A stretch of DNA of 64,000 bases from positions 599 through 64,598 of the forward strand of contig JAFGKV010000186.1 in assembly GCA_016928395.1 (NCBI GenBank), read 5' to 3'. The translations under genes and the position numbers were made by a program. The stretch is from Candidatus Fermentibacterota bacterium (GTDB lineage Bacteria > JAFGKV01). Under the pieces are notes generated by a model that had not been told where the DNA came from, made no database searches, and saw nothing but the letters and a program-made list of their open reading frames with translations. Below are positions 43,451-56,042 of the stretch, one piece after another; within the stretch, counting starts at the first letter, position 1; every line of letters begins with the position of its first letter.

Positions 43451-43544
43451 CGCGTTCCCTCGTATGAGTGCGCCGTAGCCAGCCTCCATGCCCGCTCGTC
43501 TCCCTGATCAACCCAGCGGCAGCGCTGAGCGACCGCCGCCGACT

Positions 43545-43964
43545 CTATTCCTCGACTTTCAGAGAGTTCTCCTTACACCATTCCAGGAGTCGGTCCTTGG
43601 TCTCCCGTGCCTCGAACTCATACCACGTCTCCAGCACACCCCGCCTGGCGAGGAGGTCCTTGAATCGGCCGTAGGCCCCTCGCCGACGGAAGATCTCCCT
43701 CACCCGCCACGGAAGCTCACCGCCAATCCCGTCCGCAAAGGCGAAAGCGAGACTCCGGCCTAGACCCAAGTCGTTCTTGTGGGGAATCGAGACGAAATCG
43801 TCGTCGAACTCTGCGTCTTCGGGAACCTCGTCCACATCGGCCATATCCGATCGGTAGAAGACCTCACCCGTAACCCTCGACACAAAGGCCGAGTTCGCGT
43901 ACTGAGGGGCCGAACTCACGAAGCTGAATGCCGCTTCGATATCAGAGTACGTGATCATGGTCAC
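43545..43964 (-). CDS. Hypothetical protein.
   Basis: 139-aa acidic protein with coding-like composition; slightly lower GC (~57%) than the flanks. No family recognised. Confidence 0.5.
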   Translation of the reverse strand: MTMITYSDIEAAFSFVSSAPQYANSAFVSRVTGEVFYRSDMADVDEVPEDAEFDDDFVSIPHKNDLGLGRSLAFAFADGIGGELPWRVREIFRRRGAYGRFKDLLARRGVLETWYEFEARETKDRLLEWCKENSLKVEE

Positions 43965-44773
43965 CTGTCCTCTCTTCCCTCATCGAGCGAGTCCAACGCG
44001 AGAATCTGCGGTAGACGCAGTTTTCGCATGACCCCACTACTGACGGATTCTCAGCGCGCGGCTGAACCCTTCCGTGCGCGACGTCTATCTTCTCACGAAG
44101 ATCAACCACTACCCCCGGTGATGATGCGGATGAGCCCCAAACAGGGCAAGGCATTCGCCACGCCCGCGCTGCCCTTGGCATCCGCTCTCACCTCTCCGTG
44201 GCCTGTTTCGCCGATGATACTCCAATTCAGTGGGGGAGACAAGTCGGCGCTCCTTGAGGAAGCGGACCGGAGGCAGAGGCGGCCTGTAGGGTCATCCGTT
44301 CGACCGTCCATGCGTGGCGGTCTGGTTCTCGCCCGTCGTGCCAACGCCGTTTTGGAATGGCTCTTCTTCGGCCAATCCGAAAGGGACCTCTTCTTCCTTT
44401 CTTCGGCACTGCGCACCGGCAACTGCCGACTCCTTGGAGTGCGGCGGCTCGCCGCCGCATTCGCCTGCGGGAGCTGGGCTCCCGCCATCCAAGGCGCAGG
44501 CAAGCCTGCGCAAACCAGTCGTCAAATCCAAGGTCGGTCAGTTCCACCGCCTTCACTCCTCCGTCGGCCACTCCACTTCGGCCTTCGCCGCTGTCCCGCC
44601 TTCCGCGGCACCTGCGGAGATCGCGATCATCAGACCGCCGATCACTCTCCGACCATGCTCCTCAGAGTGTCCATTTCAAACCAGCGATGGTGCTGTGGGA
44701 GCGACTCTTGGTCCGGCACGGCTGGATGCTGGGATCAGCCGTGACTCCCCCGTTCTGTTCCTGGTGTTCCCGG

Positions 44774-45085
44774 CTACTTCACCACCGTGATCGGGACGAA
44801 CTGGCGGGAGCCATCGCCCTCAACTCCCAGGAAGTACTGGCCGGTGGTGATGGTGTCCGGCAGTCTCAAGACGATCGTCGCGTCCGGTCCCATCCTCTCC
44901 GCCTGCTGCAGGCTCATCACCCGCCGCCCCAGCAGATCGACGACGGTAAGTCGGATCAGGCCTTGTCCTTCCAATCCCGCAACCCCGCATCCTTCGTTGC
45001 GGAACCATGGCGTGACGTGAAAACAGCACATCCGATCGGGGACTCCGTATGCGATTGGAACCCGCCGGAAAGCATTCGACCACAA
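44774..45085 (-). pseudogene. Orphan T9SS C-terminal sorting-domain remnant (3' end of a decayed cargo gene).
   Basis: Translation ...LIRLTVVDLLGRRVMSLQQAERMGPDATIVLRLPDTITTGQYFLGVEGDGSRQFVPITVVK* matches the T9SS C-terminal-domain pattern. No upstream catalytic region exists, and the 5' side runs into the IR-bounded element at 45152-45336. Confidence 0.45.
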
Positions 45086-45143
45086 GGATTCTGAGGATCG
45101 GCGGAATGCGTCGCAACTGGCTCACAAACAGGCAGGATCGGAG

Positions 45144-45343
45144 CTATTCTAGTCTGAGCCCACGTTGAGCGATTCCCCTCTACTGCGGCTTCCACCGCGC
45201 GGCTGCGCTGTTCGTTTCCCGCTTCGCCCTCTCGACGTATCCGGTGGATACGCCTCCGTCGTCTCAGCGCTCCAACATCGCGGCTCGCTCGCGCGTTGTG
45301 AGCCTCGCGACGACAAGAGTCGCTCAACGTGGGCTGAGAATAG
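45144..45343. mobile_element. ~185-bp inverted-repeat-bounded, highly structured element (MITE-like) inserted between the two half-sites of a CTATTCTA / TAGAATAG palindrome.
   Basis: Left: CTATTCTA-g-TCTGAGCCCACGTTGAGCG (45144-45171). Right: CGCTCAACGTGGGCTg-AGAATAG (45321-45343). TIR ~15/16 bp. The interior has several internal palindromes (CCGCGCGG, CGTATCCGGTGGATACG, GTCGTC...GACGAC). Confidence 0.4.
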
Positions 45344-45538
45344 TGGGCAGTATCGGCCCCGGCTGCGCCGGACGCGCGGCCCGAGCAGCCGGATCCATGG
45401 CCAGGTGCCGAGAGGGAGTGGTCAGTCTTCAGTTGTCGGTAACCAGTTGAGCGCAGGGGAAGCGGCGACACGAAACCGGCGAAGAATCCCCATCGTGCGA
45501 CGGAAGGACGCGCCATGGGTCGAGAAGCATGCGAACGC

Positions 45539-45637
45539 GATCCGATTGTATCCATCACAGCCCCTGGTGAAGGTCTCTCTCGGAACGGAATAGGCTTCAA
45601 GGAAGCCGATACCTCCTGCGCGGTCAAGCGGTTCGGG
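45539..45637. repeat. Copy A of a three-copy ~100-bp repeat family (core TATCCATCACAGCCCCTGGTGAAGGTCTCTCTCGGAACGG...GGCTTCAAGGAAG...GTCAAGC).
   Basis: Aligned by eye against copies B (49400-49505) and C (51838-51930); ~85-90% identity over the ~55-bp core. Confidence 0.6.
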
Positions 45638-45867
45638 TGCGACGTAAGGTCTTCCGCCGGCAAGCCTTGGAGATCCCCCAGGCCAAGAGCCCGAGGACTG
45701 ACCAGTCCTACTCTCATGGCCGTCCGTAGACCGCAGAGCCCCGCGCGCGGAGCGGCGTGGTTGCCTGACGGCTACTCGAGATCTTCGAGAGGAATTGTAT
45801 TGCCTTCCCGGGCTTCCCTTCGGGAGCGCTCAATCACCTTCCGGAACCGTGGGTCGTTGAGGAGCCG

Positions 45868-46014
45868 CTACTCGAGGTAATCATCCTCATCTCGGAAGCC
45901 CCTGAGCACTGCAACCGGTTTCCCGTGGCGTGTGATGATGATCTCCTCCCGGACCGCTCGCTTCACGCAGGCCGAGAGACTATCCTTCGCCTGACTAAGA
46001 GACATCGTGGTCAT
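45868..46014 (-). CDS. Phd/YefM-family antitoxin (short, 48 aa).
   Basis: MTTMSLSQAKDSLSACVKRAVREEIIITRHGKPVAVLRGFRDEDDYLE* has the Phd/YefM N-terminal signature (ITRHGKPVAVL). The ATG at 46014 overlaps the relE-like stop (ATGA). Confidence 0.7.
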   Translation of the reverse strand: MTTMSLSQAKDSLSACVKRAVREEIIITRHGKPVAVLRGFRDEDDYLE

Positions 46015-46307
46015 GAGTTCTTCACTCCATGTTCATCGAGCAATTCCCCAGCGCCAGCCTTTGGCACAATGGCCAGAACGATCACCTTCGCGCCGACGAC
46101 ATCGCAGAAGACCCTGTATTCATCGACCCGGAGACGGTACTCGGGATGCGCCATCGCGCGTAGCTTCTTGATTCGACTCCGGCTCGTCTTCGTCGGTTCG
46201 TACCGAAGATGGCGTTCGAGTTCAGTCTTCAGCACCGCACGCCACCGGGAACTCAAGGCCCGGTAGTGGCATTGAGCCGTAGTGGTTAGAACGATTTCGA
46301 AGCGCAT
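46011..46307 (-). CDS. RelE/ParE-family toxin.
   Basis: C-terminal KKLRAMAHPEYRLRVDEYRVFCDVVGAKVIVLAIVPK matches the RelE/ParE core (YRLRVGDYRVIY...V.IL.I.HR pattern). Confidence 0.75.
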   Translation of the reverse strand: MRFEIVLTTTAQCHYRALSSRWRAVLKTELERHLRYEPTKTSRSRIKKLRAMAHPEYRLRVDEYRVFCDVVGAKVIVLAIVPKAGAGELLDEHGVKNS

Positions 46308-46628
46308 GCCTGCAAGGTGGCGACTTTCTAACCAGAATCAAGGCCAGATTAAAGGCTATGTCTCATCTGGCCATGAGGTGGCCAGCGGAAGGGGGTACGC
46401 GGTCGGCCGACACCGCGTCGTAGGGCAACTGGAGAGCCTGGTGCGCCTGCCTGCCGCAGGCAGGTAGCGAAACACGCTCCTGTCGCGTCGCAGCTTCAGC
46501 GGAGACGGATGCCCGCCTGCGAAGCGGGCTGACTGCCGACTGAAGATTGCCGCCCCATCTCCTCACTCCTATCTCCTTACTCGACAGACCCCTTCGAGTC
46601 CTTCGTGTCTTCGCGGTGAGATTGCTGC

Positions 46629-46659
46629 CTTTGCGCTCTTTGCGCTCTTTGCGCCTTTG
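46629..46659. repeat. 9-bp tandem repeat (CTTTGCGCT) x ~3.5.
   Basis: ctttgcgct ctttgcgct ctttgcgc ctttg read directly, in the spacer between the RES gene end and the relE start. Confidence 0.6.
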
Positions 46660-46839
46660 TCGTTGACCCTGAGCGCAGTCGAGGGGCGGGAGATTCCCGT
46701 TTCGGATTTCCCGCGTAGCAAGCCGACTCTTCCATTCGTTCCAACTCGCCGATTATCCGGCGCATTCCCCACGTCCCTATGCCGGCCCTGGAGTGCGGAA
46801 TGCAGGAATGCCAGGACAAGCGGAGTGGGGTGGCCTCCG

Positions 46840-47310
46840 TCAGCGCGGCTTCGTGAGGCGGGGGTCGAAGCGGAACTCGGCGGCGCCGCCGATCCCGATG
46901 CGGGCGAAATCCGAATGCGCCGGGTTCAGCAGGAAGTTGGTCTCCACACGGACAATGGCGCTCGGCACGGCCAGCACCGCCGACGTACGACGCCTGACCC
47001 ACTCCGTGCCCAGACGACGGGTCGATGCGGGGGGCGGATCATCGGCCCAGTCAGCAGGAAGGTCGGCTGATGCCACTCGGAGGCAGATGGATTCGTCGAA
47101 CGTGATGGGCACGCTCACGTACAGACTCAGAAACTCAGGCGTGCCCAAGTGGGCGAGCATCTCTAACGCCGCCAGCGACAAGGATCCCGCGGTGTACACC
47201 ATGCGGATGCCCCGCTGGTTCCACCGGCCCGGGTACAGTCGTGCACCTTCGCCGGCAAACGCCGCTTTCGCATGCCTCGATTGGACGATTCGCCATGCGG
47301 TGATCGTCAA
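46840..47310 (-). CDS. RES-domain toxin (ParT/MbcT-like).
   Basis: GRWNQRGIRMVYTAGSLSLAALEMLAHL contains the R-E-S residues in the expected context. TTG start at 47310 overlaps the antitoxin stop (TTGA); the longer ORF to 47430 would overlap the antitoxin. Confidence 0.75.
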   Translation of the reverse strand: MTITAWRIVQSRHAKAAFAGEGARLYPGRWNQRGIRMVYTAGSLSLAALEMLAHLGTPEFLSLYVSVPITFDESICLRVASADLPADWADDPPPASTRRLGTEWVRRRTSAVLAVPSAIVRVETNFLLNPAHSDFARIGIGGAAEFRFDPRLTKPR

Positions 47311-47636
47311 GAAAAGACCCCGTGCTCCAATCGTCCCAGCAAGTCCTCGACCTCCCTCGCGCCGACCTCGGTGTCGGCATGCTGGAGCGGCGTTTGCCCC
47401 CGTAGCGCTTTCTTCGGTGACTTGAGCCACTGTCGCGCCTGCTCCTCGCCTCCGAGTGCCGCCACGGCGCTGTCGAACAGCGTGGCGATGCGGTAGACCT
47501 TCTCGGACTCGAGCGCCCTGAGTCTCCCCTCCTGTTTGCGGCGCGCGAGCGTTCGCCGTGCGATCGATACGAGGTCAGCCAGCTCGTAGACCGTGAGCTG
47601 TAGCTCGCTGCACAGCTTCTCGAAGGCCGTGAACAT
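47307..47636 (-). CDS. Xre/MbcA/ParS-family antitoxin (HTH + DUF2384-like toxin-binding domain).
   Basis: HTH LTVYELADLVSIARRTLARR; C-terminal ...ARQWLKSPKKALRGQTPLQHADTEVGAREVEDLLGRLEHGV typical of DUF2384. Start chosen at M76 (47636); the tracked ORF extends to 47861. Confidence 0.7.
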   Translation of the reverse strand: MFTAFEKLCSELQLTVYELADLVSIARRTLARRKQEGRLRALESEKVYRIATLFDSAVAALGGEEQARQWLKSPKKALRGQTPLQHADTEVGAREVEDLLGRLEHGVFS

Positions 47637-48145
47637 GAACCCTCTCTTGATCTCTTCGATGGCCCGTGCGCTACTGGCAAGCCGAAGCCCCAGCGCACTA
47701 CACGGCGGTCTCCGCGATCGGCCTCGCAGGCGCAGAGCCGATGCGTCAACGGTGGCGAACCCATACTGGGTCCACCCGTACACCGAGCCTGGTTCGCGAA
47801 CGCGGGCGATCTCCTCTGGTGAAGTCGTGACCGCAGTGTCTCGGGTGCGTGAGCGGGGCATTCCTACCTCCTTATGCCATTATGCACTGGAAGATCCGCC
47901 AAATGGCATGCATTGTCAAGATGGAGAAGCACGACCAGCTCGCTGCCGCTACTTCTCGGTACGACACGGGAATCCAACGCGCCCGTCGGTGCGTGAGTGG
48001 CGGACACGGTGCGGAGCACACGCCATGTTCCACCGATGCCGTACGGCTCATCTGCCCGCGTCGCCTCGTCGAGTCGCCGGAGTGTTCTCCACGTCCGTAG
48101 GTACCGAGCGTGGCGAACTGCGAGTCAAGACAGCCCGTGCGGGCC

Positions 48146-48167
48146 ACTATTCTAAACTTAGAATAGT
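48146..48167. repeat. Second copy of the AT-rich palindrome: ACTATTCTAA-AC-TTAGAATAGT.
   Basis: Read directly; shares the CTATTCTA / TAGAATAG half-sites with 35930-35965. Located in the 730-bp divergent spacer between the Xre-RES and mazEF-like operons. Confidence 0.7.
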
Positions 48168-48317
48168 TCGTAGTGTAGCCGTGGAGTACCATGTCGCCAT
48201 GCTTCAGAGGGTTCGGAAGCCCTTTCTGGAGCGCTCTTTCGTTCAACAACCTGACACTTGCCAACGCCCCTAGACCGGCCTCGGTGTTTGTTCGCGAGAG
48301 AGGGTGGCAGGCACAGG

Positions 48318-48357
48318 ATATTCCATGCCCGGAATATTCCTGGCATGGAATATTGGC
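48318..48357. repeat. Array of three ATATTCC half-sites forming a ~36-bp near-perfect palindrome centred on GGAATATTCC.
   Basis: AGGATATTCCATGCCCGGAATATTCCTGGCATGGAATATTGG; 34/36 positions self-complementary when checked against its reverse complement. Confidence 0.7.
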
Positions 48358-48588
48358 TCTCGGCGCGTCGCCCGGCTGTCCGGAAAGCCTGTCCCTAGAC
48401 CGGGATGCCTCGCTATCCTTTGCGTCCTTGCCTGCTCTTCGTGAGATTCCCGTTTGGCTTCTTGCGCTTCCCGAGTAATGCGTTCAGGATTTCCCGCGCA
48501 GCACTGCGCGGTGGGCTTGACTGCAGCGTGCCTCAATCCCTTCTTGGCAGAAGTGATGTCAAGAGGACAAGGGGTAAAGGAGTAGGAG

Positions 48589-48843
48589 ATGGCAGAGGAG
48601 ATGGCAGAGGACACGGCGTTGGCGTACAGCAGGCTGTCCAGTAAGGGACAAGTCACCGTTCCTCTCAAGGTCCGGGAGGCGTTGGGATTGAAGGCTCGTG
48701 ACATAGTGGCGTACGAGGTCCGCCCTGACGGTGTGGTTTTGCGCAGGGCCGAACCATTCGATGTGGAGTTTTATCGTGCCCTCGCCTCCACGCTGGAGGA
48801 ATGGAACTCCCCGGAGGATGAAGAGGCATTCCGTGACCTGTGA
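48589..48843 (+). CDS. AbrB/MazE/SpoVT-family antitoxin.
   Basis: SKGQVTVPLKVREALGLKARDIVAYE is the swapped-hairpin AbrB/MazE signature. Confidence 0.75.
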   Translation: MAEEMAEDTALAYSRLSSKGQVTVPLKVREALGLKARDIVAYEVRPDGVVLRRAEPFDVEFYRALASTLEEWNSPEDEEAFRDL

Positions 48844-49168
48844 TCAGTGGGACGTGGTCGCTGTTCCGTTCCCGTTCTCGGAGTCATCGGGGGCGAAGCG
48901 ACGTCCTGCAGTGGTCCTCAGCGGGCGAACCTTCAACAATGCCGGCCACGTCGTACTCGCCATGGTGACCACACAGCAGCATCGCCCGTGGCCCGGTGAC
49001 ACGCCGGTTGCCGACATAGATCGGGCAGGCCTTCCGCGCCCGTGCATCGTTCGACTGAAGCTCTTCACGCTGGATGCGCGGCTGATTGCCCGGAGACTCG
49101 GCACGCTCGGTACGGATGACATCGCGGCAGTGCGAGCGAGCCTTCGCACATATCTCTCGTGCGATTGA
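48836..49168 (+). CDS. PemK/MazF-family toxin.
   Basis: WDVVAVPFPFSESSGAKRRPAVVLS...VLAMVTT matches the MazF/PemK/CcdB-fold consensus. GTG start overlaps the antitoxin stop (GTGACCTGTGA). Confidence 0.75.
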   Translation, partial: TCDQWDVVAVPFPFSESSGAKRRPAVVLSGRTFNNAGHVVLAMVTTQQHRPWPGDTPVADIDRAGLPRPCIVRLKLFTLDARLIARRLGTLGTDDIAAVRASLRTYLSCD

Positions 49169-49399
49169 GCCTCAACCAGCGCACGCCCTCCCCGGGGGGC
49201 GAACCACGCCATGTCTGGAGCACACGCGGTCCTGTCTCCGCTTCCGCGGCTCGATTCTGACTTCAGAACAGTGCCCGAGACCCCTCCATCCGACTCGGCT
49301 TCCGTCTGCTCTCCGTGTGGTCAGACTGCCTCCCCACGTTCCTTCGCGCAATCCCCGCGGCGAGCGCTGCGGACCGCTGCGGCGAGCGGGATTGGAGGA

Positions 49400-49505
49400 T
49401 GTCCGATCGATCATATCCATCACAGCCTTTAGTGAAGGTCTCTCTCGGAACGGGACAGGCTTCAAGGAAGAGCCTCGACCCAGGACCGTCAAGCCCGCCG
49501 GTTCA
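49400..49505. repeat. Copy B of the three-copy ~100-bp repeat family.
   Basis: GTCCGATCGATCATATCCATCACAGCCTTTAGTGAAGGTCTCTCTCGGAACGGGACAGGCTTCAAGGAAG...CCGTCAAGC. Confidence 0.6.
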
Positions 49506-49662
49506 GCTTCGCGCCCTCCGCGGAGCCCGGGGAAATCACGATTTTAGGACCACACACAGTGCCCAGGCATGCGCACTGGAGCGTCCAACTCACGCCGATG
49601 ATTCTGTCCAATGTGCAGCCGGTGGTGAACGTGGCGAACATGCCGTTGGGGCACCGTATGTC

Positions 49663-50388
49663 TCATCCGTCTTCTTCGCCGGTCTTGTCGGTACCTCTAG
49701 ACATCCGCAGAAAGACAACGGAGTTCGCATTCCTGAATGGGGTGTCGTACTTGCACGCGAGAGATTCAACGAGGTCCACCTCGACCCATTCATTGTCGCG
49801 GGAGATTCTCTTCAGGCACTCGACTGAGACCGTCTCACTGAGCACATCGGGCAGTTTCTGATCAAGATACTGGTTATACCCGACTGGTATTGTTACGAGC
49901 GCCTTCCCGTCAGGAGTGAGAAGGGCCTGGACCTTCCTCAGGGCGGTAATCACCGATTCCTGCTGTCTCGGCCTCTCATCCCATCCCACATGCTCTATGG
50001 TCGAGATGGATACGATGACGTCGAATCGCCGCCCCGGGCGGAACGCGAGGAGATCCTGGTTGAGTACCGGTCTGTACGTACATCGTTCCCATTTGTCGAT
50101 GACGGTATGACCTATGTCGAAGTAATGGGACAAGACGTTGCCGACTTCGAGAGTCGTGGAAGGAGATGCCTTTCCCAGGAATTCACGCACATATGGGATT
50201 TCGACGGCACGTTCATTTGCCCATGTATGGTTATATGGATGGAAGAAGTACGGGTATTCACGTCCGCCAAGATGGAAGGTCCGCGTCCGCAGCGGGTTGC
50301 GATGTTCGCGGATAGTCCAGCGGATGCGATCGCTGAAGCATCGACGCCACAGCTTGAACTCCATACTGGAATCGCGCAGAATGCTCAA
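49663..50388 (-). CDS. Methyltransferase-fold protein (class I SAM-MTase-like, 'type 11'-like), in a lower-GC region.
   Basis: FDVIVSISTIEHV (post-motif-II block) and a weak motif I (TLEVGNV). Region GC is ~53% versus ~67% in the flanks (hand-counted on four 60-nt lines). Confidence 0.55.
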   Translation of the reverse strand: MSILRDSSMEFKLWRRCFSDRIRWTIREHRNPLRTRTFHLGGREYPYFFHPYNHTWANERAVEIPYVREFLGKASPSTTLEVGNVLSHYFDIGHTVIDKWERCTYRPVLNQDLLAFRPGRRFDVIVSISTIEHVGWDERPRQQESVITALRKVQALLTPDGKALVTIPVGYNQYLDQKLPDVLSETVSVECLKRISRDNEWVEVDLVESLACKYDTPFRNANSVVFLRMSRGTDKTGEEDG

Positions 50389-50451
50389 CCGTGTCTCCCC
50401 ATCAGCCTCGAACCGCTGTTCCGTAAAGCCAGGTGCCGACGAAACGAATGC

Positions 50452-51441
50452 TCAACCCCCGTGGCAATACTTCTCGATCTCCTCTTCAGTCAAGGCGCGA
50501 TTGTAGACATAGACCTCATCTATCGTACCGCATGCATAGTGTTTCCCCCTCTCACCTGATCCGATCAGGAACGCGTCGGCTATGTCTGGAAGTCGCGCGG
50601 GAACTCCGTTGAGACTTCCGAATACCTGTCTGCCGTTGACGAAGACCCTCGCGAAGCCGTTATCAATGGTCATCGCATAATGATACCATTCATTCAGCTG
50701 GAAAGTGTGTGAGGGCACTTCGACATCAGTATGGCTGCCCGGATCATACAACGGATGCAGCTTCGGAGAGACCAACAGCCTATACGTGCAGCACTCAGCG
50801 GAACTGACAATCCCATCGTACTCGGCATGATCGGTAAGCCGAAACCAGGCCATGATCGTCATCTGATTGGTTGATGAGAATTCGTAGTGCCCGCTGACTT
50901 GGACATAGCTGCTGCGGCCGTTCAGTCTCAGCCCCTCCCCGTCCTTGCCTTCACCCCATTCTGCGCCAAAGACGGTGCTTGTATGCCCCTGCCCACTCTC
51001 GTCGTTCGCATCACCGTTCAAGGGAAGGTAGAGAAGGAGACCATCATGAGAGGCCCCTCCTGCCTGTGGAGACGCCGAAGCCTGACCGCGTTCCTTGGTT
51101 CTGAGATGAACATCGGTGATCGTTGTCTTGCCCGCCACAACGGCGATTCTGACGCGGGCCTCGGGGTGGCCATACTTGGCCACGATGACCACGTAGTGAC
51201 CGACAAGGACGTCGGCGATCGTGAAACTCCCGTTCTCGTCAGTCGTGACGGCGCTGGTAGGCGGGTCCGTACAGACGCTGGCGAGTGGGATGGCCGTCCC
51301 GTCTCGGGAGTCGATGGCTCTTCCGCTGATGATCCCTGTGGGAGGAACGGGTTCGGGAGGTGTTTCTACTGGCACACGCCCTGCAAACCGATGACATGCG
51401 AGCTGGCAAAGTAGCAACAACACTATCCAGGGTCTGTTCAT
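50452..51441 (-). CDS. Secreted protein: carboxypeptidase-regulatory-like domain followed by a LamG/concanavalin-A-like lectin domain.
   Basis: Signal peptide MNRPWIVLLLLCQLA. ISGRAIDSRDGTAIPLASV...ENGSFTI...YVVIVAKYG is CarboxypepD_reg-like. NGRSSYVQVSG...MTIMAWFRL...NEWYHYAMT...VFVNGRQV is the LamG pattern. Lower GC. Confidence 0.65.
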   Translation of the reverse strand: MNRPWIVLLLLCQLACHRFAGRVPVETPPEPVPPTGIISGRAIDSRDGTAIPLASVCTDPPTSAVTTDENGSFTIADVLVGHYVVIVAKYGHPEARVRIAVVAGKTTITDVHLRTKERGQASASPQAGGASHDGLLLYLPLNGDANDESGQGHTSTVFGAEWGEGKDGEGLRLNGRSSYVQVSGHYEFSSTNQMTIMAWFRLTDHAEYDGIVSSAECCTYRLLVSPKLHPLYDPGSHTDVEVPSHTFQLNEWYHYAMTIDNGFARVFVNGRQVFGSLNGVPARLPDIADAFLIGSGERGKHYACGTIDEVYVYNRALTEEEIEKYCHGG

Positions 51442-51837
51442 GAAATGATCCCTCCCTCCTTCGCTTCTCGTTGATCCGGGCCGCGGCCCACCCAACTATG
51501 GCTCCTGTGGATCCGAAGGGGATGCCGAGGTCGGAGGGTAGCCGCAGAACCCGCCCTCGGCGGACTGCGATGGTAGTGAATCTTCCTGTGAGCATTGCCT
51601 TCCGTCCTGCCATTATGGACTCGCCTGCATCTCATGCGTGCCCAGCCAGTCGCATCCGCCTCTGACCAGAAGCGCGCCAACCGTATTGGTGCCATGAGGA
51701 AACACACGGTCCTCGGCGCTCGGGGGCCAGTGGATTGGGCCGTGTCGGGATGCCGCGGCAGGCGGCCGGCCGTCGGACGTAGCGAAGGCGGTGAGGCGCG
51801 CTCGGTTGGTGTGTAGGGTCGCGGGCTGGTTGCCCAA

Positions 51838-51930
51838 GATCCGACCGTATCCATCACAGCCCCTGGTAAAGGTTCATCTCGGAACGGGATGAGACCAAAG
51901 AGCAACATTGACTCCGCACCGTCAACGCCG
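51838..51930. repeat. Copy C of the three-copy ~100-bp repeat family.
   Basis: GATCCGACCGTATCCATCACAGCCCCTGGTAAAGGTTCATCTCGGAACGGGATGAG...ACCGTCAACGCC. Confidence 0.6.
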
Positions 51931-52068: not shown

Positions 52069-52132
52069 GGGCGTGTAGGGGCAAGGCTCTGACCTTGCCC
52101 ACGGGCGGAGTCAAAGCTCCGCCCCTACAAGG
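52069..52132. other. Nested-hairpin structure: outer stem GTAGGGG/CCCCTAC enclosing two adjacent perfect 8-bp hairpins. Possible small structured RNA or recombination site ~400 bp upstream of the tRNA.
   Basis: gtagggG-CAAGGctctgaCCTTGCCc-ac-GGGCGGAGtcaaagCTCCGCCC-ctac, read directly. Confidence 0.45.
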
Positions 52133-52535: not shown

Positions 52536-52611
52536 GGGCGGGTAGCTCAGCTGGCAGAGCACCGGCGTCACAAGCCGGGGGCCACAGGTTCAAGCCCTGT
52601 TCCGCCCACCA
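52536..52611 (+). tRNA. tRNA-Val (anticodon CAC), 76 nt including encoded CCA.
   Basis: Cloverleaf folded by hand: acceptor GGGCGGG/TCCGCCC (G-U closing), D-arm GCTC-AGCTGGCA-GAGC, anticodon stem CCGGC/GCCGG with loop GTCACAA, T-arm ACAGG-TTCAAGC-CCTGT, discriminator A, CCA. Position 32 = G is unusual. Confidence 0.8.
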
Positions 52612-52679
52612 GTCTTGCAGTAGTCAGGCCTTTCGAGGGCCGGCTTCCCTCTCACGCGCCTAGTTAGGCATGCGGGCAC

Positions 52680-53393
52680 ATGGATGAAACCATAGAACTC
52701 CTGCTCAAGCTTCAGGAGATCGATTCTCTGGCGGACGAGCTGGAGAGGAAGAGGGCGCTGGTTCCCAAGCGTCGCGCTGAGCAGCAGGCGGTGCTGGATG
52801 CCGCAGTTGCCGCAGTGGCTGAGCACAAGGACCGGGTCAAGAAGAAGGAACTAGACAAGCGCGCCGCAGAGAACGAAGTCAAGGAGATCGAACAGACCAC
52901 GCTACGCTACCAGACCCAGCTCAATGCCGCCAAATCGAACGACGAATACCGGGCGCTGGTTGCCCAGATCCGGCGAGCCAAGGAACGGCAGAACGCCCTT
53001 GAGGACCGGGTCCTCGCCGCCATGGAAGAGATCGATCAAGTCGAGCGTGCGCTTGGCGAGGCAGAGGCCGCCCGAAAAGCCGCCCACCAGCAGTCTGCAG
53101 ACCGCGATCGTGAGCTCACTGCTCTGTCGGCCTCGCTGGGGGAGGGAATCCAGGCAAAGGCTATGGAGAGGAAGCGGGTCGCCTCGTCCCTCGATCCGGT
53201 GACCTTGCGCCGGTACGAGCGTATCCGGAGTGGCCAAGGCGCTCCTGCGGTAGCCGTGATTGATGGCTACATTTGCGGGGGTTGTCACGGCACTCTTCCG
53301 GCGCAGACTGTCAACGAGATCCGGAGAAGAGACAAGCTGTACACGTGCCAGTTCTGCGGCAGGATCGTAGTCACGCTCTCACCGCAGGACTAG
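52680..53393 (+). CDS. COG1579-type zinc-ribbon / coiled-coil protein.
   Basis: Long N-terminal coiled coil then the C-terminal YICGGCHGTLP...YTCQFCGRIV C4 zinc ribbon, the COG1579 hallmark. Confidence 0.8.
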   Translation: MDETIELLLKLQEIDSLADELERKRALVPKRRAEQQAVLDAAVAAVAEHKDRVKKKELDKRAAENEVKEIEQTTLRYQTQLNAAKSNDEYRALVAQIRRAKERQNALEDRVLAAMEEIDQVERALGEAEAARKAAHQQSADRDRELTALSASLGEGIQAKAMERKRVASSLDPVTLRRYERIRSGQGAPAVAVIDGYICGGCHGTLPAQTVNEIRRRDKLYTCQFCGRIVVTLSPQD

Positions 53394-53404
53394 GCTGGTT
53401 AGCC

Positions 53405-53885
53405 GTCAGGGACGGCCCCAGGCGATCGCCTCCCGGCAGCGCCGGGGGGAGGAAAGTCCGAGCTCCCCGGGGCAGGGTGCTTCGTAACGCGAAGGCCGGG
53501 TGACCGGCGGAAAGCGCCACAGAAAGTATACCGCCCCGCACCCAAAGGCTGCGGTGCCCCTGCACTGCAGCAGTCTGGTTTCTTTATCCGCCGCCTTTGG
53601 GTGCGGGGTAAGGGTGAAACGGTGAGGTAAGAGCTCACCGGTTCCGGAGGCGACTCCGGAAGCCGGGCAAGCCCCACCTGGAGCAAGGCCAAATAGGGAG
53701 GAATGAGCCGCCCCGACTCTCATCCTCCGGGTAGGCCGCGTGAGCCCGTCGGTGACGGCGGGCCCAGATGAATGATCGCCACCCCGCACCCACGAGCCGC
53801 GAAGGGGGAGCAGGCAATGCCCATGTTCCCGCTGCGCTGCTTGTGGGTGCGGGGAACAGAACTCGGCTTATGGGGCCGTCCCATG
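53405..53885 (+). ncRNA. rnpB: RNase P RNA, bacterial type A (rnpB), ~480 nt with an apparently elongated terminal hairpin before the P4 3' strand.
   Basis: Universally conserved blocks present: GGAGGAAAGTCCGAGCTCC (P4 5'), GGCAGGGTG, ACAGAAAGTATACCGCC, GGTAAGGGTGAAACGGTG-AGGTAAGAGCTCACC (P10-12), GCAAGGCCAAATAGGGAG, GATGAATGA, AACAGAACTCGGCTTAT (P4 3'). P1 pairing GGGACGGCCCC (53408) with GGGGCCGTCCC (53872-53882). Confidence 0.85.
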
Positions 53886-56042
53886 ACGCTATCGTCCGAT
53901 GCTTTTATCGCCGGTGTAAGGGATCTCGATCCCAGCCTCGACACCGTCATCCTTGGCCGCGCGTTCGACATGGCATCCGCGGCCCATCGCGACCAGATGC
54001 GTGCCTCTGGTGAGGCATACTTCAGCCATCCCCAGGCCGTGGCGCTCACCGTTGCCCGCCTGGGCCAGGGCAGTGACGCGGTAGCCGCTGCCCTGCTTCA
54101 CGACGTCGTCGAAGACGGCGGCGTCACCATCGACAATGTGCGACGCGCCTTTGGCCCCGGCATCGCGACTCTGGTGGCGGCACTGTCCAAGATGTCTGCC
54201 CTCGAGACCCCCCAACGGGAGGCCCGTCAGGCCGAGTACTTCCGGCGTCTCCTCCTGGCATTGGGCGAAGATGTGCGGGTGATCGTCATTAAGCTGGCAG
54301 ATCGCCTCCACAACATGCAGACCCTTTCCTTTCTCGCCCCTGACCGCCAGCGCTCCATCGCCACTGAAACCCTGGATATCTATGCGCCCCTCGCCCATCG
54401 CCTGGGAATGGGGTGGTTTCGTGTGCAGTTGGAGGATCTCGCCTTCAAAGAGCTCGATCCGGCATCGTATCAGCAGATGAAGGAACGTGTCGCTGCCCGG
54501 CGAGAGGAACGCGAGTCTATGGTGGAGGGATTGGCCGCTCCTCTGGCCGCCATGCTCACCGCGGAGGGAATCTGCGGGCAGGTGGTTGGGAGGGTGAAGC
54601 ACTTCTACGGCATCTATCGGAAGATGAAGCTCAACGGGAAGTCGTTCGATGAGATCTTCGACCTGGTAGGTCTTCGAGTCATCACGCAGTCAGTGGAGGA
54701 CTGCTATCGGGCGTTGGGTCTGGCCCACACAATGTGGGCCCCGGTGGAAGGGCGTTTCAAGGACTACATCGCGGTTCCCAAACCCAACATGTATCAAAGC
54801 ATCCACACCACGGTCAAAACCGAGGAGGGTGTCACCGTGGAGTTGCAGATACGGACCTCGGTGATGGACACCATTGCTGAATTCGGCGTTGCGGCACACT
54901 GGCGATACCATCTGGAGCAAACCGGAAAACGCTACGTGGCCAAGGAGCATTTTCGCTGGATTCGACAGCTCCTCGAGTCAGAAACCGCCGAGGATGCCCG
55001 GAGGGATCTGCTGGGCGCCTTCCGCGACGGAACCCGAGACGCCGAGGTCATGGTGCTGACGCCCCGCGGCAAGTTGATTCCCATGCGGGCCGGTTCTACG
55101 GCCCTTGACTTCGCATTCTCCCTGCACTCCGATATTGGGCTGCACTGCGCCGGCGCCCGGGTCAATGGAAAGGCCGTCACGCTGGATCATGTCCTGAGCA
55201 GTGGTGATCAGGTGGAGATTCTCACCTCCCCTGCAGCCCATCCCACCCCAGGCTGGCTCACCAGGGTGGCGGGCACCAGTGCCCGTCAGAAGATCAGGCG
55301 ATACCTTCGGCGAGCAGAGCGTGAGCGACTTCAGGCGTCAGGACGGACACTGCTCCTACGGTATCTGCGCAAAGAGAAGCTCCCGCTTCCCAAGACGGGG
55401 ATTGCGTGGGATGAGCTAGCCCAGACCCTTCAGTATCCTACGGTTACTGAACTTCTTCATGCCGCGGCCATTGGCGCCGTGAGCCGTTCCCATCTGGCAG
55501 CGCTGCGACCCAAGGAGGAACCATCGCCATCTCAGGAACCCCTGCGCGACATACCCCATGAAGCCCGGGGAATTCGTTTGGGCGATCTCCGCGGGATTGC
55601 CGTCAGATTCGCCGAATGCTGCCGGCCGATTCCGGGTGACAGGATCACCGCCATGGTGACCAGGGGCCGGGGCGCCAGTATCCATCGCGTTGATTGCAGC
55701 AATGCCTTCCGAGGCGACGCCGAACGGTGGATCACCGTGGAGTGGGATGTGGCGCACGGAGAGACCTTCAGTGCCCACTTGGCCGTACTGGTCGGCCAAC
55801 GGAGAACGGTGCTGGGAGACATGGAGGCGGCAATCCAGGGTGCAGGCGCACGGCTGGGAGGGATTGAGATCACCAGCGACATTGACGGATCTCGTTGGCT
55901 GCAACTGGTGGTGGTCGTGACGGGCACACAGCATGTGGACGCAGTGCTGACGGCGATCCGCAAGCTGCCCGGCGTCCTTGAGGCGGCGCGGGGACGCCCC
56001 ACCAGGCCTGGCCGAAGAGTGCAGAGAGCGATCCAGTCGTGA
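53883..56042 (+). CDS. Bifunctional (p)ppGpp synthetase/hydrolase, RelA/SpoT family (long RSH).
   Basis: HD hydrolase domain (HRDQMRASGEAYFSHP...HDVVED), synthetase domain (GRVKHFYGIYRKM, DLVGLRVI), TGS and ACT-like C-terminal regions; 719 aa. The ATG at 53883 follows the last rnpB nucleotide directly. Confidence 0.9.
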   Translation: MTLSSDAFIAGVRDLDPSLDTVILGRAFDMASAAHRDQMRASGEAYFSHPQAVALTVARLGQGSDAVAAALLHDVVEDGGVTIDNVRRAFGPGIATLVAALSKMSALETPQREARQAEYFRRLLLALGEDVRVIVIKLADRLHNMQTLSFLAPDRQRSIATETLDIYAPLAHRLGMGWFRVQLEDLAFKELDPASYQQMKERVAARREERESMVEGLAAPLAAMLTAEGICGQVVGRVKHFYGIYRKMKLNGKSFDEIFDLVGLRVITQSVEDCYRALGLAHTMWAPVEGRFKDYIAVPKPNMYQSIHTTVKTEEGVTVELQIRTSVMDTIAEFGVAAHWRYHLEQTGKRYVAKEHFRWIRQLLESETAEDARRDLLGAFRDGTRDAEVMVLTPRGKLIPMRAGSTALDFAFSLHSDIGLHCAGARVNGKAVTLDHVLSSGDQVEILTSPAAHPTPGWLTRVAGTSARQKIRRYLRRAERERLQASGRTLLLRYLRKEKLPLPKTGIAWDELAQTLQYPTVTELLHAAAIGAVSRSHLAALRPKEEPSPSQEPLRDIPHEARGIRLGDLRGIAVRFAECCRPIPGDRITAMVTRGRGASIHRVDCSNAFRGDAERWITVEWDVAHGETFSAHLAVLVGQRRTVLGDMEAAIQGAGARLGGIEITSDIDGSRWLQLVVVVTGTQHVDAVLTAIRKLPGVLEAARGRPTRPGRRVQRAIQS

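Follow-up and report, generated by a model that had tools for sequence, protein, structure and literature searches.

Three short direct repeats in the chromosome of a Candidatus Fermentibacterota bacterium are, as judged by sequence comparison, the visible tip of a larger and previously uncatalogued non-coding element of ~440 nt. The DNA analysed, referred to below as the window, is the 64,000-nt stretch from positions 599 to 64,598 of contig JAFGKV010000186.1 (assembly GCA_016928395.1), chromosomal DNA with a GC content of 62.6%. One of the repeats, copy A, forms the 3' end of the full-length element (45013-45640, assigned to the plus strand by convention and comprising ~440 nt plus a 186-nt insertion), and the other two, copies B and C, correspond to its 3' module only. 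The evidence base is the comparison of the window copy with three homologous contigs. To account for this arrangement we tentatively favour, at a little under even confidence, an explanation in which the element acts as an insertion hotspot, with copies B and C as att-type duplications.

The three repeats had been described in an earlier reading of the window's letters, hereafter the sequence-only reading, as a family with a common core, and this family proved to be real. The core (TATCCATCACAGCC..GTRAAGGT..CTCGGAACGG) is found at 45549, 49414 and 51848, always on the plus strand, with 0 chance matches expected for the 26-nt degenerate core. Exactly three copies in the 64 kb were recovered by repeat finding, by an nhmmer profile and by a covariance model with its filters turned off, and blastn aligned A with B over 68 nt at 88%, A with C over 53 nt at 87%, and B with C over 92 nt at 73%. 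The 3' module runs from GGGTCG or GATCCGA to GTCAAG and occupies 45517-45630 in copy A, 49402-49493 in copy B, which has a 4-nt GATC duplication after TCCGA, and 51816-51926 in copy C, which starts at GGGTCG. Copies B and C are 5'-truncated, their homology being confined to the final ~95-115 nt of the ~440-nt element; their left ends are 21-22 nt apart, with that of C further upstream, and lie just 5' of a conserved nested hairpin, while the right edge (..GTCAAG/C) is common to all copies. All three repeats are intergenic and sit within a stretch of accessory DNA, with copy B between the stop of a PemK/MazF-like gene (49168, plus strand) and the stop of a 241-aa gene (49663, minus strand), and copy C between the start of a LamG-type gene (51441, minus strand) and a tRNA-Val gene (52536). 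The flanks are not paralogous by tblastx, in agreement with the statement that the copies lie in different contexts. The limits originally given for copy A were wrong, as homology to sequences from other samples continues ~500 nt further left, to ~45013. The accompanying claim that the family is not a duplicated gene end was right about the unrelated flanks and nevertheless misleading: because the homology of A extends this far left, what has been duplicated is best described as the 3' end of a non-coding element and not the end of a gene.

The element also occurs once in each of three unrelated metagenomic contigs, at 71-82% identity and with perfectly conserved blocks. One of these (L014, a 1364-bp JGI contig) was the sole true homologue of six relaxed-pattern matches in metagenomes, the other five being chance matches, and it aligns by blastn to 45409-45585 at 71%, so that similarity reaches 130 nt to the left of copy A. 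The other two, L016 (an ENA contig of 752 bp) and L017 (a Logan contig of 1440 bp from the same sequencing run as the source metagenome-assembled genome), were reached through two ORFs of spurious appearance that a search with the minus-strand translation of the longer region recovered from 1.84 billion representative proteins. By blastn, L016 aligns to 45336-45641 at 82% and to 45031-45149 at 72.5%, and L017 to 45335-45588 at 76% and to 45052-45158 at 68%. As both blocks are contiguous in L016 and L017, the window carries an insertion of 186 nt (45150-45335) that is present in the window copy only. The insertion is itself a long hairpin, with 27-nt arms (45149-45175 and 45317-45343) that are 89% complementary, and it lies exactly within the loop of a small hairpin (CTATTCT..AGAATAG) that is kept in both L016 and L017; no second occurrence of it was found within the window. 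A further Logan contig (L008) breaks inside this insertion. In L016, read as its reverse complement, two tandem copies of the element's 5' module (CTTGAC.TGTGAC...GATCGA...TTCGA.TGGG) occupy 142-204 and 226-290.

Searches for a known repeat or RNA family, which had been proposed as checks on the sequence-only reading, returned nothing. The strict core pattern had 0 matches in genome, metagenome and viral contig collections, and an 18-mer and two further patterns gave one chance match or none in viral contigs. There was likewise no meaningful match in 72,556 plasmids and 50,697 phages searched with blastn, or in IMG/VR. The Rfam scan assigned neither the window copy nor its homologues to a family, even at E<=10, and with ARAGORN neither a tRNA nor a tmRNA was detected in the element and the homologous contigs, on which ground a tmRNA or tRNA-like RNA was rejected. 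In addition, two word-indexed protein searches with six-frame translations yielded no match; this negative is weak, because Logan open reading frames (ORFs) over copies B and C that are in the collection were also missed.

The sequence-only reading had raised the possibility of a conserved mini-ORF or leader peptide, on the grounds that differences between copies are almost all silent in one frame. The plus-frame core does read YPSQPLVKV(S/H)LGT(E/G), and in that frame copies A and C do meet a stop right after the motif while copy B stays open. The substitution count is different from the one claimed, with 5 silent against 4 non-silent changes in the 42-nt core and 8 against 12 over 57 nt. In each of the remaining five frames, 0-2 changes are silent. 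The binomial P is estimated at ~0.05 before six-frame correction, with no significance once six frames are allowed for. Furthermore, the similarity between A and B goes past the stop codon of A (..TAGGCTTCAAGGAAG..GTCAAG), a continuation that coding constraint cannot account for. There is no conserved start codon, and in L014 a 1-nt insertion in the hairpin loop breaks the frame to give the peptide YPSLPQGEGIFRKWM followed by a stop, with the downstream GTGAAGG..TCGGAA retained. Between A and L014 the third positions of the proposed frame change least (7 changes, against 13 and 14 at first and second positions), and the ratio of non-silent to silent change (pN/pS) is 1.22. Once homologues were added to the alignment, the apparent synonymous pattern was thus contradicted, and the case is a cautionary one in that few substitutions among three repeats can imitate such a pattern.

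A longer frame on the minus strand (..PFRERPSPGAVMDTIGS..) runs without a stop for 271 codons in A, 232 in L016, 236 in L017 and 172 in L014. Its pN/pS of 0.59-0.74 is no better than that of frames with stops, the values over ~115 codons in three sequence pairs and all six frames being 0.53-1.48, and the probability of the frame staying open under random substitutions is 0.09-0.17 per pair; L016 and L017 were moreover discovered via their ORFs. Residues R, S, P and A are abundant in the predicted products, which contain no Pfam domain and have only 2 relatives among the 1.84 billion representative proteins. Taken on these comparisons, the repeats and the ~440-nt element are non-coding.

The nested inverted repeat of copy A (45541-45585) is a candidate recognition or crossover site. 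It consists of an outer stem, TCCGA (45541-45545) with TCGGA (45580-45584), and an inner stem, CCATCAC (45552-45558) with GTGAAGG (45567-45573), around an 8-nt spacer (AGCCCCTG). Across the six copies, those in the window and those in the three contigs, the stems are invariant or changed by transitions only, with 95.5% of positions paired, and the loop, bulges and internal-loop segments vary in sequence, the loop of L014 also in length. The alternative offered in the sequence-only reading, a hairpin that keeps its stem while its loop varies, hence fits all six copies; no pair covaries, and the hairpin is accordingly compatible with the data without being demonstrated by them. Since the stems are kept as sequence, the fit to a protein-recognition site is at least as good as that to an RNA helix, and the hairpin could equally be a double-stranded protein-binding site. 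At the level of the whole element, folding A (insertion trimmed) jointly with L016 and L017 gives a consensus structure of -102.5 kcal/mol on the plus strand and -84.0 kcal/mol on the minus strand. On each strand it contains 12 compensatory pairs, a number reached in 0 of 500 shuffles, compared with 0-4 in slid controls. This covariation is suggestive of a structured RNA and leaves the strand undecided.

Conservation stops directly after a GTCAA(G/C) block at the right edge of the module, where two short blocks, GGAAG-N17-GTCAAG on the plus strand (CTTGAC-N17-CTTCC on the minus strand), are found at 45601-45628, 49466-49493 and 51899-51926. In A, B, L014, L016 and L017 the two blocks are separated by exactly 17 nt of little conserved sequence; in copy C, AGAGC stands in place of GGAAG. 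On the plus strand the motif may resemble promoters of extracytoplasmic function (ECF) sigma factors (GGAAC-N16-17-GTC/CGT), and on the minus strand a TTGAC -35 box. A sigma-70 scan found no promoter on either strand, and there was no intrinsic terminator at the element ends. An intrinsic terminator on the minus strand was rejected, with terminator-like sites in B and C only and no consistent shared hairpin at the right edge across the six copies.

The relationships among the copies bear on where B and C came from. Over ~90 nt of the module, identity is 0.77 for A-B, 0.75 for A-C and 0.71 for B-C; between organisms it is 0.83 for A-L016 and 0.67-0.75 for other pairs. Because the identities within the window match these between-organism values, B and C look as though they were brought in from other sources and not copied recently from A. 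In addition, the three copies form a mosaic. To the left of 45567, A equals C at all three informative sites, and to the right A equals B at 14 of 16, with a Fisher P of ~0.005 in a test of our own that precedes any correction for the choice of breakpoint. The breakpoint falls at 45566-45569, which is the 3' edge of the hairpin spacer. By analogy, a 7-bp inverted repeat with an 8-9-nt spacer would have the geometry of a tyrosine-recombinase core site, and the mosaic switch occurs there.

Copies B and C border two blocks of accessory genes, for which Pfam assignments were taken from our own search and from precomputed Pfam results on Logan contigs (run SRR13394437) identical to stretches of the window. 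The first, from A to B (45641-49401), contains three different type II toxin-antitoxin pairs within 3.3 kb (45868-49168). These are a RelE/ParE-like toxin (46011-46307) with a Phd antitoxin (45868-46014), toxin gene first, and an Xre (47307-47861) and RES (46840-47310) pair, both on the minus strand, followed by a MazE-like (48589-48843) and PemK (48833-49168) pair on the plus strand. The second, from B to C (49506-51815), holds two minus-strand genes, one for a secreted protein with CarboxypepD_reg and Laminin_G_3 (LamG) domains (50452-51441) and the 241-aa gene (49663-50388), which has a weak methyltransferase match. The GC content of this second segment is 0.578, ~3 standard deviations below the window's 0.626 +/- 0.015, and of all 2.3-kb intervals in the 64 kb the one poorest in GC starts with copy B, at 49401. 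Decayed DUF433 and PIN-like toxin-antitoxin genes come after the element in L017, on the same side as in the window. A nearby sequence in L017 resembles, by eye, a transposase fragment. The cargo looks foreign because the B-to-C block has the lowest GC, the A-to-B block carries three toxin-antitoxin modules, and L017 likewise has decayed toxin-antitoxin genes.

The hotspot explanation is favoured because an intact target, co-oriented partial 3' copies, foreign cargo and a stem-loop together match the anatomy of integration into RNA genes. Under this explanation the element would be a chromosomal locus, most likely a structured-RNA gene, whose 3' hairpin region would serve as an attachment site for incoming DNA, in a manner known from the 3' parts of tRNA and tmRNA genes. 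Every insertion would have carried its own copy of the target's 3' module, and two successive insertions, by tandem accretion, would have produced the order intact A, segment 1, partial B, segment 2, partial C. The CCATCAC / GTGAAGG hairpin with its 8-9-nt spacer would be the likely recognition or crossover site, and the recombinase would either have been lost from the locus or act in trans. Islands at tRNA genes are known to have direct repeats that equal the 3' part of the target and reach 148 bp, deviating GC and tandem accretion (PMC4891358). The locus is like these tRNA and tmRNA islands in its intact target on one side with co-oriented partial 3' copies at the far borders, in the symmetric stem-loop at the 5' edge of the duplicated part, and in its toxin-antitoxin cargo and block of deviating GC (PMC4891358). 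It is unlike them in that the target is an uncatalogued ~440-nt element rather than a tRNA or tmRNA gene (ARAGORN and Rfam negative), in that no integrase was found beside the repeats, and in that the segments are 2-4 kb rather than 10-200 kb with repeats 71-77% identical. By analogy the element would work most like an attachment site of the tRNA/tmRNA type, a comparison that fails on target type and integrase.

Several observations weigh against the hotspot and against the structured RNA on which it draws. The search for integrase, transposase and other recombinase domains was negative for the segment ORFs, for six-frame translations of all gaps between 45.6 and 52.5 kb, and for a sample of the larger ORFs of the window. 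The segments, at 3.8 and 2.3 kb, are far smaller than typical islands, the first of them has an average GC content (0.622), and repeats that are 71-77% identical contrast with fresh att duplications, which are near-identical across the crossover. The similarity between A and L016 goes ~45 nt past GTCAAG, which blurs both which copy is native and the crossover position. Among the available relatives there is no syntenic one without the segments, the nearest ones differing in their left flank. With regard to structure, no pair covaries in the repeat hairpin across six copies, and folds of individual sequences show no unusual stability (z from -2.1 to +1.1), the ~100-nt copies folding no better than shuffles and a 302-nt stretch around A reaching z = -2.1 on the plus strand. 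The consensus fold comes from three sequences, with the structure derived from the same three, and the covariation is equal on both strands.

Among the other explanations, one that we consider unlikely would make the ~440-nt sequence the terminal region of some mobile element (integrative, IS91/ISCR-like or otherwise one-ended), with B and C as solo or partial ends from nested or abortive transposition, the hairpin as a transposase or recombinase binding site, and the right edge as an outward-facing promoter. The copies do have one common end and one truncated end, the stems are kept as sequence rather than by covariation, as expected of a protein-binding site, and the homologues all lie on very short contigs (752-1440 bp), as repeats do in assemblies. 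The transposase-like fragment seen by eye near the L017 element and a short inverted match, GC(T/G)TGAC ... GTCAAGC, at the two ends of the element point the same way. However, no transposase or HUH/Rep gene adjoins any copy in the window, the plasmid, phage and IMG/VR collections gave no match, there is a single full copy in 64 kb and one per homologous contig with no target-site duplication seen, and the compensatory changes together with an insertion placed within a hairpin loop are more like an RNA gene. A distinctly unlikely possibility is that B and C arose by old local duplication of part of one non-coding region, for example as related small-RNA genes or as segmental duplications now in decay, and play no part in insertion. 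Three clustered, co-oriented and diverged copies with no recombinase found would be in keeping with such an origin, but the copy most similar to A is that of another organism (L016), not B or C, the two truncations stop no more than 21 nt apart beside the hairpin, the borders of the lowest-GC block in the window coincide exactly with B and C, and the flanks bear no trace of a larger duplication.

Two remaining explanations assign the conserved sequence a function in expression. Improbable in our view is a portable "mobile promoter" with its operator, in which the ~95-nt module was duplicated before unrelated sequences, the hairpin being the operator and GGAAG-N17-GTCAA an ECF-sigma-like promoter firing rightward, or TTGAC a -35 box on the minus strand firing leftward. 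The exact 17-nt spacing around a variable spacer in five of six copies, and the end of conservation at the second block, are what a promoter would show, and on the minus strand copy C lies ~400 nt upstream of the LamG operon and the L014 copy ~265 nt upstream of a GNAT gene. Set against this, the sigma-70 scan was negative on both strands, the minus-strand "-10" would be TTCCTT while the upstream region of tRNA-Val has an ordinary -10 of TAAGGT type, rightward transcripts of A and B would be antisense to neighbouring operons, and leftward of B there is only the 3' end of mazF. A promoter also leaves ~350 nt of conserved left sequence in A, L016 and L017 unexplained. Very improbable, finally, is that the sequence is protein-coding after all, either as the YPSQPLVKV.. 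mini-ORF or as the minus-strand ORF of 170-270 codons. That ORF is open in all four homologues and was called by gene callers on public contigs, the net length difference between conserved blocks of A and L014 is 3 nt, and the mini-ORF frame is richer in silent changes than other frames. The pN/pS of the open frame nonetheless falls in the same range as that of frames containing stops, the chance of the frame staying open is 0.09-0.17 per pair, two of the homologues were discovered through their ORFs, the products are compositionally biased and almost without relatives, and no start is conserved; B and C share only ~30 residues of the ORF, and the mini-ORF is broken in L014.

The locus was also compared with other known systems. 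Like integron cassette arrays and clusters of attC sites without an integrase (CALINs), it has ~100-bp co-oriented imperfect-hairpin repeats between small accessory blocks with many toxin-antitoxin pairs, and it lacks a nearby integrase. It differs from both in that its copies, 3.9 and 2.4 kb apart and so within the two-site rule of <=4 kb, enclose blocks of 2-6 genes on both strands rather than single-gene cassettes, in the absence of diverged hidden sites between the copies according to the covariance model, and in that copy A is part of a much longer conserved element. The repeats are not attC sites, because the R'/R'' geometry is wrong: by inspection, no R''/R' consensus (RYYYAAC...GTTRRRY) is present in the right geometry on either strand, and the outer repeats GATCCGA...TCGGAAC place AAC/GTT on the wrong side on both strands. 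Miniature inverted-repeat transposable elements (MITEs) and solo ends of insertion sequences are similarly short non-coding intergenic repeats with an internal inverted repeat, from which the family differs in having no match in plasmid or phage collections; a MITE was rejected, given three co-oriented copies only in 64 kb and no terminal inverted repeats or target duplication flanking the 100-bp units. The large structured RNAs GOLLD, ROOL, HEARO/omega RNA, OLE and raiA share with the element a length of several hundred nucleotides, perfect blocks between variable hairpins, an occurrence in or near mobile DNA, and a restriction to few lineages. Unlike those families, it matches no Rfam model at E<=10, its structure is backed by three or four sequences, and no IscB or TnpB gene is adjacent. 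Template and variable repeats of a diversity-generating retroelement were rejected for want of adenine-specific differences and of a reverse transcriptase, and a cis-regulatory leader of paralogous genes was rejected because the downstream genes are unrelated and often on the opposite strand.

To the right of the repeats the window has a conserved gene order, with tRNA-Val (52536-52611), a CT398-like gene, RNase P RNA (53409-53886) and then relA/spoT. The order CT398-like, rnpB, relA, ribD... is kept in two relatives (L003 and L004). In the nearest relatives, four CT398-RelA loci (L003-L006) with a CT398-like protein identity of 62-67%, the right flank is common, the region left of the tRNA is not conserved, and no repeat copy is present. 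A RelA-based search of reference genomes for syntenic loci yielded nothing but an unrelated locus of Pseudoalteromonas.

A number of further features were observed in this neighbourhood. The RNase P RNA is of class A, scores 273 bits and has two large insertions relative to the model. It overlaps the first ~115 nt of the longest relA/spoT ORF (53772-56042), and the real RelA start must therefore be further downstream. A 1003-bp Logan contig from the same run (L001) is 99.8% identical to window positions 52582-53490 over 909 nt, and its last 94 nt diverge from the window inside rnpB; the sample may hold a second strain, or the contig may be an assembly variant. A compound palindrome of two adjacent GC-rich hairpins within TGTAGGGG...CCCCTACA lies at 52074-52129, between copy C and tRNA-Val. 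A 40-nt imperfect inverted repeat with a 3-nt gap and GC-rich sub-hairpins lies at 44435-44517, in a stretch without a recognisable gene. Over the ~2 kb to the left of the element (43500-45400), no ORF has a Pfam or NCBIfam match and the coding signature is weak; the accessory or decayed region may extend to this side too. A type IX secretion system (T9SS) sorting domain, noticed by eye in the ORF at 44774-45121, was rejected because neither Pfam nor NCBIfam supported it.

If the favoured explanation is true, these bacteria, which belong to a barely studied candidate phylum, carry a large non-coding element that is absent from Rfam, and the principle of an RNA gene serving as an attachment site would reach beyond tRNA and tmRNA. 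Truncated copies of the element would in that case provide a handle on small accessory-gene insertions in uncultured bacteria. A bolder and quite doubtful extension is that the element represents a new family of large structured RNAs in Fermentibacteria-like bacteria, with a 3' hairpin that would act as a landing pad for integrase-less cassettes of toxin-antitoxin and surface-protein genes, relying on a recombinase encoded elsewhere. Were that so, the locus would amount to an integron-like capture platform built on an RNA gene.

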